5,982 nucleotides of DNA, taken from positions 1 to 5,982 of the IMG/VR virus record IMGVR_UViG_2606217106_000001; one strand, 5' to 3'. The DNA is from a virus (Duplodnaviria > Heunggongvirae > Uroviricota > Caudoviricetes). The number at the start of each line of letters is the position of its first letter. Position 1 is the stretch's first letter. The position numbers and the translations under genes are program-made. Positions 632 through 3,307 of the stretch are shown in pieces. The notes below the pieces were generated by a model. That model was given only the letters and a program-made list of their open reading frames with translations, made no database searches and was not told the origin of the DNA.

Positions 632-1179
632 GCGTTAGTTTCTCCACAGACACAAAACGCCACGACGCCCGGAGCTGCACACTCGCGGGCGTCACTCTTT
701 TCTGGAGCGCAAAAGATTTTGTAGACCAGTGCTGCATGCTCCTGGAGCTTCGAAATTGACAGATACAACTCATCATTAATTGCTGTCTGCTCGTGTGGCT
801 CCACTACCCCATCTTCGATTGCCGAACGAATCTGCTTTGAGTAACTCCCGATCTGTTCGATGACTTCCAGCAGACGCTGGTTAATATCGGCGTTGTCCAC
901 ATCCTCGACGTCAGGAAGAGACACAAAGACGCCATTTGCAGACTGCGCCACAGCGTCAGCAATGAAGTGAGTTCCACCAGCACGTTGTAAAATCATTGCC
1001 CATCCCAGCGGGAAAATCTGATCGCCATCTGCACGAAGGCGGTTGAATAATGCGTTCTCTGTTACATCCAGCCACTCAGCAGCTTCAGCGTAACCCCCCG
1101 GCAACGCCGCGATAGTTTTTCTGACAGCTTTCACGTACCACTCAGGCTGTTTTTCCACTTTCCAGTGATGATTACCCAC
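628..1179 (-). CDS. 183-aa early protein in the cII position, immediately downstream of cro; possibly a CII-like/YdaT-like regulator, function not established
   Basis: GTG start at 1179-1177 preceded by AGGAGG with a 6-nt spacer (reverse complement of 1180-1195). The start overlaps the end of the cro-like gene by 8 nt and the stop overlaps the next start, so the three minus-strand genes are translationally coupled. The functional label is from position only. Confidence 0.7.
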   Translation of the reverse strand: MGNHHWKVEKQPEWYVKAVRKTIAALPGGYAEAAEWLDVTENALFNRLRADGDQIFPLGWAMILQRAGGTHFIADAVAQSANGVFVSLPDVEDVDNADINQRLLEVIEQIGSYSKQIRSAIEDGVVEPHEQTAINDELYLSISKLQEHAALVYKIFCAPEKSDARECAAPGVVAFCVCGETNA

Positions 1180-1432
1180 GGCTTACCTCCTGTTCCTGTG
1201 GTTTAAACCCATTCTGGTTTTGGCTAGATTGAAAACGTGCCGGATAAAGAATCTGCATTTCGCTGATTTCACCCTTAAAAAAATTGGCCAGACGTTCTGC
1301 AAGATCGATAGATGGAATTTGTTCCAGTCTTTCAATACGACTCAGCGTCGCTGGATTGACCTGAACGCCCGCAGCAACATGCTGCAAAGTAAATCCGTGC
1401 GCCTTACGCACATTCCGTAATGGTGATTGCAT
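1172..1432 (-). CDS. Cro-like HTH (XRE-family) transcriptional regulator, 86 aa
   Basis: ATG at 1432-1430 with GGAGG 4 nt upstream (reverse complement of 1433-1441). Protein has a classic XRE helix-turn-helix (FTLQHVAAGVQVNPATLSRIERLEQ). It is divergent from the cI-like gene across a 97-bp operator region. Confidence 0.85.
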   Translation of the reverse strand: MQSPLRNVRKAHGFTLQHVAAGVQVNPATLSRIERLEQIPSIDLAERLANFFKGEISEMQILYPARFQSSQNQNGFKPQEQEVSRG

Positions 1433-1529
1433 ATAACCTCCACATATTGCGTGATGAGCATATTATTTCACGCAAATATTTTGCGCAAGTTGATTTGCTT
1501 AACGCGCAATAAAGAAATGTAATAAACGC
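1433..1529. promoter_or_regulatory. OR-like immunity intergenic region with three dyad-symmetric operator candidates spaced 24 bp centre to centre, plus candidate divergent promoters pR (towards cro) and pRM (towards cI)
   Basis: Dyads at 1447-1461 (TTGC-N7-GCAT), 1471-1485 (CGCAA-N5-TTGCG) and 1495-1509 (TTGC-N7-GCAA). Candidate pR on the minus strand: -35 TTGCGC (reverse complement of 1483-1488), 17-nt spacer, -10 TAATAT (reverse complement of 1460-1465). Candidate pRM on the plus strand: -10 TAATAA at 1520-1525, which puts the transcript start at or near the cI ATG, and there is no SD before 1530. Confidence 0.6.
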
Positions 1530-2222
1530 ATGAACATAGGAAACCGAGTCAGACAACTTCGCCAGGCGAAGAACATGAAAATCGCCGATCTCGCTGAAGC
1601 AATAGGAGTGGATGCGGCGAATATCTCACGCCTGGAAACAGGTAAGCAGAAACAATTCACTGAACAAGCCCTGAGTAATATTGCCAGGAGCTTAGGTGTT
1701 GATATTGCTGATCTCTTTACCTCAGACGTCAAAAGTAATACTGTATGTAAAAACAGTATTAGTGAGGATGTTGCGCAGGTGAAGGATGTATTCCGTATTG
1801 AAATGCTGGATGTCAGTGCCAGTGCGGGAAATGGCCTTATCCAGGGCGGTGATGTCATTGATGTGATTCATGCCATTGAATACAGAACTGATAATGCTGT
1901 ATCGATGTTTGGCGGACGGCCAGCCAATCACATTAAAGTTATCAACGTTCGTGGGGACAGTATGTGTCCAACCATTGAGCCAGGAGATCTCATCTTCGTT
2001 GATATCAGTATCAATCAGTTTGATGGGGATGGTATATATGTATTTGGTTTTGATGATAAAATTTACGTCAAACGACTGCAAATGATACCTGATAAACTGC
2101 TGGTAATTTCTGATAATCAGATTTACCGCGAATGGGGAATTACCAGCGAAAACGAACATCGGTTTATGGTCTTTGGAAAGGTCTTAATCAGTCAGTCACA
2201 AACCCTTAAGCGACACAATTAA
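1530..2222 (+). CDS. cI-like prophage repressor, 230 aa: N-terminal XRE HTH plus C-terminal S24 (LexA-like) autopeptidase domain
   Basis: HTH at roughly residues 17-40 (KIADLAEAIGVDAANISRLETGKQ). Candidate Ala99-Gly100 cleavage site in the linker (SASAG-NG). GDSM with Ser144 and a KRL lysine (Lys181); the Ser-to-Lys spacing of 37 residues equals that of LexA. ATG at 1530 has no SD. Confidence 0.93.
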   Translation: MNIGNRVRQLRQAKNMKIADLAEAIGVDAANISRLETGKQKQFTEQALSNIARSLGVDIADLFTSDVKSNTVCKNSISEDVAQVKDVFRIEMLDVSASAGNGLIQGGDVIDVIHAIEYRTDNAVSMFGGRPANHIKVINVRGDSMCPTIEPGDLIFVDISINQFDGDGIYVFGFDDKIYVKRLQMIPDKLLVISDNQIYREWGITSENEHRFMVFGKVLISQSQTLKRHN

Positions 2223-2242
2223 CCCCTACCTCAACATCAATT

Positions 2243-2267
2243 AGCCACCAGAAGGTGGCTTTTCATT
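2243..2267 (+). terminator. Rho-independent terminator candidate downstream of the cI-like gene
   Basis: AGCCACC (2243-2249), 4-nt loop AGAA, GGTGGCT (2254-2260), followed by TTTTCATT; 21 bp after the cI stop. Confidence 0.6.
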
Positions 2268-2276
2268 ACCCACCAA

Positions 2277-2330
2277 ATTGCATATCTCGCAATAAAAACA
2301 CTTGCATAATGCGCAACTTCATTTTATCTT
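2277..2330 (+). promoter_or_regulatory. OL/pL-like region: two operator dyads matching the OR consensus, overlapping a candidate rightward promoter
   Basis: TTGC-N7-GCAA dyads at 2278-2292 and 2302-2316, centres 24 bp apart, with the shared core TTGCnTAnnnCGCAA. Candidate promoter: -35 TTGCAT at 2302-2307, 17-nt spacer, weak -10 TATCTT at 2325-2330. The promoter assignment is tentative. Confidence 0.45.
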
Positions 2331-2760
2331 TCTTTCCAGACATACAAACAAGGTACTAACAAAATTTGGTTGTAACACGGCGTATGGCACATGCGTCGTT
2401 AGCGGTCTGGTGACGTTAAAGGGGACAATCCACTCCTTGCTCGGGCAAACAAACCAGGTAGCCGGAATGTGCAAGTCAATGATGATGCTGATAAGACGCC
2501 TAACCAGCGTGGCGATTCGGTTTGACGCCTGGGAAGAGACCAGGGTGCAACGATGAGGGCATTTATGGAACCGCGACAAAGTGTGGTGCCGTAACTGGCT
2601 AAGTGCTCTCAGCGTTGTGGTGAATGCGCAGGCTGATGCGCGAAAGACATTGCAGCTATTGCGGAAAAGAGCTGTTCGGCGGGGCAATTAAACGCCCGTG
2701 AGAGTCTGAAATAACCGCAAGCCGGAGATCAGCACCGGTCACCACAACAGCCACTGCTTT

Positions 2761-2807
2761 AGCGGTACCAGTTTGTACACTTGCTTCCGGCTGGTACCGC
2801 TCTTTTT
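2761..2807 (+). terminator. Strong hairpin followed by a U-tract; candidate intrinsic terminator or attenuator upstream of the accessory operon
   Basis: Perfect 11-bp inverted repeat AGCGGTACCAG (2761-2771) and CTGGTACCGCT (2791-2801) around a 19-nt loop, then CTTTTTA at 2802-2808. The minus strand has no U-tract. Confidence 0.4.
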
Positions 2808-2896
2808 ACAAAACAGAGAAGAGCATCACCGGCCGACGGGCTCATAACCCAATCCATCCTGGCGGCTGCCACCGCAGGTGTTCTTCTCTGTTTTGT
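2808..2896. repeat. Perfect 15-bp inverted repeat enclosing 59 bp of GC-rich sequence, just upstream of the yfdP-like ribosome-binding site
   Basis: ACAAAACAGAGAAGA at 2808-2822 is the exact reverse complement of TCTTCTCTGTTTTGT at 2882-2896. The enclosed segment has further local dyads (for example CCTGGCGG...CCGCAGG). Confidence 0.6.
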
Positions 2897-2944
2897 GGAG
2901 AAACCAACCGACCTTGCAGGGTCGATATGATGAGGAGCAGCAAA

Positions 2945-3307
2945 ATGGCTAGCGAACGCAGTACTGATGTGCAGGCATTTATCGGGGAGCTGGACGGCGG
3001 CGTATTTGAAACCAAAATCGGCGCTGTTCTCAGTGAAGTCGCTTCCGGTGTGATGAATACGAAAACCAAAGGTAAGGTCTCGCTCAACCTGGAAATCGAA
3101 CCATTTGATGAGAACCGTGTGAAAATCAAACACAAACTCTCATATGTTCGCCCGACTAACCGCGGGAAAATTTCCGAAGAAGACACCACCGAAACGCCGA
3201 TGTATGTCAATCGCGGTGGTCGCCTGACTATTCTGCAGGAAGACCAGGGACAATTACTGACTCTTGCCGGTGAACCTGACGGAAAACTCCGCGCAGCAGG
3301 TCGTTAA
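2945..3307 (+). CDS. yfdP: YfdP-like prophage protein of unknown function, 120 aa from this start
   Basis: ATG at 2945 preceded by GAGGAG (2932-2937) with a 7-nt spacer. The ORF track begins at ATG 2927 (126 aa), which remains an alternative. Symbol assigned by synteny with yfdQ/yfdR and recalled length; not verified. Confidence 0.7.
   Translation: MASERSTDVQAFIGELDGGVFETKIGAVLSEVASGVMNTKTKGKVSLNLEIEPFDENRVKIKHKLSYVRPTNRGKISEEDTTETPMYVNRGGRLTILQEDQGQLLTLAGEPDGKLRAAGR

Follow-up and report, generated by a model that had tools for sequence, protein, structure and literature searches.

Dyad sequences on both sides of cI as predicted repressor operators of an mEp460-type lambdoid immunity module

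In phage lambda, the repressor gene cI and the early leftward promoter (PL) lie on one strand with cro divergent, dyad operators are present at the early rightward promoter and the promoter of repressor maintenance (PR and PRM) and again at PL, and the whole module is exchangeable. We found the same arrangement in a 5,982-nt stretch of the virus record IMGVR_UViG_2606217106_000001 (hereafter the window), in which TTGC-N7-GCAA dyads flank a cI gene and are predicted to be the operators of its repressor. As in lambda, the CI protein joins a helix-turn-helix (HTH) and an S24 domain and possesses an Ala-Gly site together with a Ser/Lys pair, the two sites of the left operator (OL) are 24 bp apart, and the cI mRNA is probably leaderless in the window. 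The differences from lambda are also evident. The window operators are 15 bp long and of another sequence, there is neither a recognisable OR2 in the right operator (OR) nor an OL3, the strongest site of OR covers the -35 of the cI promoter, an extra site is found in cro, and no N gene follows PL. A search of the PDB gave no close sequence match of the window CI to lambda CI.

The closest characterised relative that we checked is the HK022 CI (43% identity, residues 19-228). HK022 operators (TGAAC-N5-GTTCA) exhibit the same 15-bp geometry of 5-N5-5, as in an HK022-like subfamily, and the HK022 OR1-OR2 and OL pairs are both spaced by 24 bp, the OL spacing being shared with the window. In HK022, an auxiliary operator is also located at a distance downstream of PR. 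In contrast to the window, HK022 exhibits a different arm sequence and a recognisable OR2, and its distal site is at about 270 bp (not 50), outside the N-terminal codons of cro. Within the HK022 locus, the weight matrix described below reached 12 bits nowhere; neither the same arms nor a close relationship of the DNA-binding domains is thus seen.

Phage 933W resembles the window in having an OL with two sites and no OL3 (PMC5977221), although its repressor and operator sequences are unrelated. A phage of the same immunity type, 1720a-02, has recently been studied for its Cro protein, which is needed for phage replication and lytic growth and represses the lytic promoter of a co-resident prophage (bioRxiv 10.1101/2025.01.01.630987). 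In an AlphaFold3 model of the same preprint, this Cro is placed on 20 bp located 20-39 bp upstream of cI, where its Arg32 makes contacts to two guanines. Arg32 is also present in the window Cro, and the modelled stretch corresponds to window positions 1491-1510, spanning the site at 1495-1509. The preprint models this single Cro site; it does not describe CI binding, the pair at OL or the sites at PR and within cro. In our literature searches, no operator map determined by experiment was found for this immunity type.

The region is very probably, as judged from its relatives, the immunity module of an Escherichia coli lambdoid prophage of the mEp460/SfII/Stx2a-1447/1720a-02 type. Window positions 1100-3000 exhibit 99.3% identity to the viable temperate phage mEp460, 96-98% to the Shiga toxin 2 (Stx2) phages phiSTEC1575-Stx2k, 1720a-02 (96.5%), Stx2a_1447 and WGPS2, and 91% to the Shigella phage SfII. 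Counting the cases where at least 80% of this query was covered, 847 of 5426 complete E. coli genomes carry this immunity type. The e14 element of K-12, which we considered as another carrier, does not carry it. The gene order is a CII-like gene, a cro-like gene, a control region of 97 bp, cI, a terminator, the downstream dyads, a stretch of about 590 nt with no gene that we could recognise, and yfdP, yfdQ and yfdR. As is characteristic of a lambdoid module, cro (minus strand) and cI (plus strand) are divergent, with the 97 bp between them. The window CI is 100% identical to that of mEp460 and its operators are identical to those of this viable phage, which agrees with the original prediction that the immunity region is intact. 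The dyads are almost certainly, on these comparisons, the repressor operators of a common, ordinary and intact lambdoid immunity module.

Exact TTGC-N7-GCAA dyads occur in the window only at the three places first reported, 1495-1509 (TTGCTTAACGCGCAA), 2278-2292 (TTGCATATCTCGCAA) and 2302-2316 (TTGCATAATGCGCAA), and the extended core proposed for them, TTGCnTAnnnCGCAA, fits all three. All of them fall in the short intergenic stretches on either side of cI. Only 0.23 such dyads would be expected in the window, and three were reached in one of 200 dinucleotide shuffles. A symmetrised weight matrix was then built from 29 sites of relatives only, with the window and its near-identical copies excluded. 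With this matrix four sites in the window, and no others, scored at least 15 bits (0.063 expected), namely the three exact dyads and 1447-1461. The same four were the only ones in the entire mEp460 genome of 44.5 kb (0.48 expected), the next-best site scoring 12.2 bits. The motif might have been equally frequent throughout the genome; since all the strong mEp460 sites are these four, it is not.

The sites are conserved together with the repressor. Among 14 relatives (CI 67-100% identical) from Escherichia, Shigella, Salmonella, Citrobacter, Klebsiella, Buttiauxella, Trabulsiella and Pseudescherichia, the four sites are found at fixed offsets from the cI ATG (-83, -35, about +748 and about +772), with conserved arms and variable centres. 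In a wider IMG/VR sample, which provided 107 distinct OR haplotypes and 155 distinct downstream (OL) haplotypes, both OR sites (-83 and -35) are retained in all 107, and over the two sets the four sites keep their offsets, with invariant arms and variable centres. In 80 copies with CI at least 99% identical, variable columns amount to 1 of 16 in the OL arms, 10 of 10 in the centres and 19 of 31 in the flanks and spacer (Fisher P = 9e-6). Phage Ayreon provides the converse case. Both of its flanks are shared with the window (about 97%), and the part corresponding to about 1156-2361 is replaced by a different repressor and cro. The Ayreon module exhibits no TTGC dyads and has its own TGTACC...GGTACA sites in the same places. 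Its repressor and cro match ymfK and ymfT of e14 in gene length, and we take the Ayreon immunity to be of the e14 type on these lengths, the only property compared. Because the sites are fixed in the relatives and gone where the repressor has been swapped, the motif is inherited with the repressor. The operators thus change with the repressor when the module is exchanged as a unit, and the same motif overlaps early promoters at OR and OL, both being lambdoid traits. The proposal of one motif on both sides of cI stands: it is found at PR/PRM and at PL, and it goes with this repressor type alone. The sequences, positions, conservation and specificity of the sites, like their co-inheritance with the repressor, are read directly from the genomes. 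The features of the region are listed in Table 1.

Table 1. Genes, putative operators and predicted promoter elements of the immunity region (window positions; scores from the weight matrix)
Feature	Position	Strand	Sequence	Remarks
CII-like gene	628-1179	minus		Pfam Phage_CP76
cro-like gene, 86 amino acids	1172-1432	minus		HTH_3
Putative operator in cro codons 8-12	1397-1411		GTGCGCCTTACGCAC	8.8 bits; weakest version in the family
cro Shine-Dalgarno	1441..1436	minus	GGAGGT	strong; precedes cro
Putative OR1-like operator	1447-1461		TTGCGTGATGAGCAT	15.6 bits; TTGC-N7-GCAT, one mismatch (GCAT for GCAA)
Predicted PR -10	1465..1460	minus	TAATAT	17 bp from -35
Everted repeat CGCAA-N5-TTGCG	1471-1485		CGCAAATATTTTGCG	-38.8 bits; middle dyad of the original prediction
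Invariant block	1481-1490		TTGCGCAAGT	holds PR -35 and one operator arm in each orientation
Predicted PR -35	1488..1483	minus	TTGCGC	invariant in 107/107 haplotypes
Putative OR3-like operator	1495-1509		TTGCTTAACGCGCAA	17.3 bits; covers -35 and spacer of the predicted cI promoter
Predicted PRM (cI) -35	1495-1500	plus	TTGCTT	
Predicted PRM -10	1518-1523	plus	TGTAAT	104/107 haplotypes
cI repressor gene, 230 amino acids	1530-2222	plus		HTH_3 and Peptidase_S24
Intrinsic terminator of the cI transcript	2243-2264	plus		
Putative OL2 operator	2278-2292		TTGCATATCTCGCAA	18.7 bits
Putative OL1 operator	2302-2316		TTGCATAATGCGCAA	20.8 bits; left arm is the predicted PL -35
Predicted PL -35	2302-2307	plus	TTGCAT	
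Predicted PL -10	2325-2330	plus	TATCTT	17 bp after -35

The CI sequence exhibits the features of a self-cleaving repressor. Pfam places HTH_3 at residues 7-62 and Peptidase_S24 at residues 104-218, and the cleavage and catalytic residues (Ala99-Gly100, Ser144 and Lys181) are kept, being invariant in relatives of 67-100% identity. The protein would consist of an N-terminal Cro/C1-type helix-turn-helix and a C-terminal self-cleaving S24 domain. Since the HTH domain begins at residue 7, the ATG at 1530, used in RefSeq, is the real cI start. In the GenBank records of mEp460 and Stx2a_1447 the gene starts at Met16 (1575), which truncates the first helix of the HTH. CI most likely binds as dimers to the 15-bp dyads W-TTGC-R-N5-Y-GCA-W, with arms of 5 bp that would be one helical turn apart, a geometry as in the HK022 operators. 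The recognition helices of Cro (ATLSRIE) and CI (ANISRLE) are alike, and the helix is invariant in relatives at 67-100% identity. The 86-aa Cro, sharing the Ser-Arg-(Ile/Leu)-Glu recognition helix with CI, most likely uses the same sites. Which of the two proteins binds where, in what order and how cooperatively, and where transcription starts, we infer from these comparisons.

The predicted promoters PR, PRM and PL were located from conservation, and all three have spacers of 17 bp. The conserved hexamers are TTGCGC/TAAYAT for PR, TTGCNN/TGTAAT for PRM and TTGCNN/TAnnnT for PL, and every predicted -35 is an operator arm. The PR -10 is TAATAT, TAACAT or TAAAAT in 105 of the 107 haplotypes and TAnnAT in all of them. 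Six variable nucleotides separate the PRM -10 from the cI ATG, a Shine-Dalgarno sequence is absent, and because of this position and this absence the cI mRNA is probably leaderless. The sole call of a generic consensus scan, a plus-strand TCCACA-16-TATTAT at 1439-1466, was rejected; its -35 is in the cro Shine-Dalgarno region and it is unconserved in relatives. We also rejected TTGCA as a sigma-54 -12 element, as no upstream GG element is present. Rfam gave no match in 1433-2330.

Two strong sites are found in the OR intergenic region. The one at 1447-1461 is TTGC-N7-GCAT in all 14 relatives and scores at least 10 bits in 107/107 haplotypes. It overlaps the final two nucleotides of the PR -10 hexamer and the predicted PR start, and it is because of this overlap that it always ends in T rather than A. 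CI or Cro on this site would cover the -10 and the start of PR, the promoter driving cro. The other, at 1495-1509, scores at least 13 bits in 107/107 haplotypes and would cover the -35 and spacer of the cI promoter, which appears to start at the cI AUG. Because the site covers this promoter, Cro or an excess of CI bound there would turn off cI. Between the two there is only the invariant TTGCGCAAGT, the predicted PR -35 with back-to-back half-sites. The sequence TTGCGCAAG is at a fixed offset in 107/107 haplotypes, and the stretch of 19 nt that separates it from the PR-proximal site varies greatly. Any OR2 in the window would be a half-site in need of cooperativity. A weak site at 1517-1531 (ATGTAATAAACGCAT, 8.0 bits) was discarded, as it never reaches 10 bits in any haplotype and its TGTAAT is better read as the PRM -10.

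On the other side of cI, the window exhibits two OL dyads 24 bp apart from centre to centre (2285 and 2309), as had been reported. Exactly two OL sites are found in 153 of the 155 haplotypes, and in the same 153 no third site of at least 10 bits lies beside OL1 and OL2. The 24-bp spacing is not a family constant, the centres being 22 bp apart in 26, 23 bp in 95 and 24 bp in 32 of these 153 haplotypes. The PL -10 is conserved as TAnnnT at this spacing in 154 of 155 haplotypes, and it is invariant in 36 OL haplotypes. OL1 would supply the PL -35, and OL2, 24 bp upstream, would form with it a cooperative pair shutting off PL.

Codons 8-12 of cro appear to hold a further operator. This site, family-wide and new here, was not part of the original prediction. 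Its centre is 50 bp from that of OR1 and at about +50 from the predicted PR start. At this offset (-133) the dyad is present in every relative and scores at least 10 bits in 84% of the 107 haplotypes (median 14.2), other offsets in the region giving nothing above 5.4 bits. The codons used are Leu TTG in 61 of 61 cases, Val GTG in 21/21, Ser TCG in 58/58, Ala GCG in 21/21 and Gln CAA in 26/27, whereas elsewhere in those cro genes the same codons account for 19% (TTG), 16% (GTG), 9.5% (TCG), 16% (GCG) and 50% (CAA). Variation is free at the third base of the Arg codon and in the entire middle codon. The codon choice thus preserves xTGCG-N5-NCGCAx regardless of the amino acids, and for this reason we consider that the DNA dyad is maintained independently of the protein. 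In distant relatives the synonymous-codon P is 0.005-0.02. We interpret the site as a putative auxiliary operator that would serve as a roadblock or as an additional anchor, and its outermost bases are degenerate in the window. Near the cro start (1427-1431, TGATTGCAT, with Met-Gln as ATG CAA) we observed another TTGCA half-site, constant in the 14 relatives and possibly a mere coding constraint.

The intragenic site leads to a different reading of OR, which we regard as possible though rather doubtful: OR would consist of strong sites in cro, at PR and at PRM, three in all and spaced by about 50 bp, and an OR2 would not be obligatory. On these sites CI would assemble into a loop or a higher-order complex, in which the OL pair some 800 bp away may take part, and the intragenic site would be a roadblock or an "antivirulence" operator comparable to O_FR of HK022 or O_D of TP901-1. 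Sites at -133, -83 and -35 are indeed found in 84-100% of the haplotypes, against 36% for an OR2 at -56, and the codon evidence backs the site in cro. In HK022, whose CI is 43% identical, a scan gave a candidate distal site, GGTACTAAAAGTACA, with three mismatches and 267 bp beyond OR1, which we take to be O_FR with the function described for it. O_FR was reportedly described by Carlson and Little in 1993. On the other hand, spacings of 48-50 bp correspond to about 4.6-4.8 helical turns, a poor phase for direct dimer-dimer contact, and the intragenic site is at its weakest in the window. We would only tentatively suggest that the right operator of this immunity type is not lambda-like, with two invariant strong sites 48 bp apart, a third written in cro codons 8-12, and an OR2 in about one third of the lineages. 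If true, CI would repress by means of a complex that is looped or of higher order, or else a roadblock to transcription would be at work, and a leaderless cI would be under tight negative autoregulation.

Far less probable is a lambda-like tripartite OR, in which three equivalent dyads would form a 24-bp lattice (centres 1454, 1478 and 1502) with 1471-1485 in the middle. This is how OR had been described, and it is the part of the claimed uniform 24-bp spacing that fails: the spacing holds for the OL pair in the window, whereas in the intergenic part of OR the two strong sites are separated by 48 bp and the element at their midpoint is everted. This element is a perfect 5-5-5 symmetric sequence exactly midway between the strong sites, and in the lineage of the window it has a variable centre (ATATT, TTATT, CTATT, AAAAT, GTAAA) framed by constant arms. 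Its arms point outward (CGCAA-N5-TTGCG), and its CGCAA arm (1471-1475) is restricted, among the 107 OR haplotypes, to the window's own lineage, where it is constant with variable neighbours. The middle site of the relatives is at offset -56, 3 bp further right and of normal polarity (xxGCGAATTGCGCAA, 10-14 bits), and reaches at least 10 bits in 36% of the haplotypes. At the equivalent place in the window (1474-1488) only the right arm is present, as a candidate weak OR2 of -1.6 bits. An overlapping alternative at 1481-1495 was rejected, as it scores 0 bits in the window and reaches 10 bits in only 1% of haplotypes. Three adjacent OR operators about 23-24 bp apart, as in lambdoid modules, are thus not found. 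We also considered and rejected the everted repeat as a PurR/LacI-type box. Such boxes are CGCAA-N4-TTGCG with a central CG, and the spacing of N5 differs.

It is most improbable that the TTGC elements are mere -35 hexamers, the dyads being by-products of promoter conservation or binding a host factor: the left arms of three sites do coincide with predicted -35 hexamers, but the right arm YGCAW, 7 bp on, is equally invariant though in promoter spacers, OL2 and the cro-internal site lie off promoters, the motif is lost in Ayreon despite the same host and flanks, and at such strength it occurs nowhere else in mEp460.

Several points weigh against reading the dyads as operators of an ordinary lambdoid switch. 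Our counts overstate the number of independent events, since the haplotypes share a phylogeny. The Cro site of the preprint is a structural model rather than a footprint. Each of the predicted -35 hexamers matches the consensus at 3/6 positions, PRM is without the -11 A, and the generic consensus promoter scan called none of PR, PRM and PL. The window's own cro site, GTGCG-N5-CGCAC, is weak (8.8 bits; synonymous-codon P = 0.11). No full OR2 is recognisable in the window's lineage, and a lambda-type cooperative pair at PR is consequently not evident. Finally, the strong site over the cI promoter would give CI self-repression at low concentration, unlike in lambda.

The epithet of a "complete lambda-style" switch also overreaches, as there is neither a tripartite OR lattice nor an N-like gene after PL. 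No Pfam or PHROG match, to an N-like antiterminator or otherwise, was found among the open reading frames (ORFs) in 2302-2926. Phages SfII, SfV and SfIV have been reported to lack N (PMC3851460). The stretch from the predicted PL start to yfdP (2337-2926, plus strand, about 590 nt) has no ORF with a Pfam or PHROG match and no Rfam match. Its first 200 nt or so are the part most conserved among IMG/VR copies, and the stretch is common (about 97%) to the heteroimmune phages Ayreon and cdtI and to Stx2c phages. Many of the PL-leader haplotypes have a mosaic structure downstream. At 2761-2808 (plus) a 13-bp hairpin followed by UCUUUUU resembles an intrinsic terminator (-21 kcal/mol, z -3.5), the 3' side of which reads CGCTCTTTTTACAA and is boxA-like. 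An inverted repeat with a 23-bp stem follows directly (2805-2899, plus; -44 kcal/mol, z -5.7). The early leftward genes would need read-through, though an N gene is not evident. The ArcA-regulated "sRNA-17" of E. coli K1 RS218 (PMC7719688) maps to about 2612-2806 on the minus strand, as judged from its alignment and from the primers used to delete and complement it. This RNA runs antisense to the PL leader and has its 5' end at the terminator hairpin.

At the left end of the window, on the minus strand (83-170, 195-271 and 232-284), were the only Rfam matches, strong ones to C4 antisense RNA (82 bits) and isrK (62 bits) and a weak one to a C4 target. All of them are inside the N-terminal third of a 383-aa "Rha/antirepressor" annotated in GenBank and RefSeq (ORF from 631, minus, running off the left end), of which the annotated start is probably wrong. 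It is likely that this antirepressor, downstream of the CII-like gene, is under RNA control of the P1 immI or Gifsy IsrK kind.

In kind, then, the window holds an ordinary lambdoid switch, its noteworthy parts being the operator inside cro and the missing OR2. This immunity type is found in about one sixth of complete E. coli genomes and in the Shiga toxin phages Stx2a_1447, WGPS2, 1720a-02 and phiSTEC1575. Because it is so common in E. coli and present in several such phages, its operators would set the induction threshold for toxin release, and they would also govern cross-talk among co-resident prophages, which the 1720a-02 preprint has demonstrated for Cro (bioRxiv 10.1101/2025.01.01.630987). 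With the consensus W-TTGC-R-N5-Y-GCA-W and the site map, homo-immunity becomes predictable from sequence, and footprinting and reporter work have direct targets.

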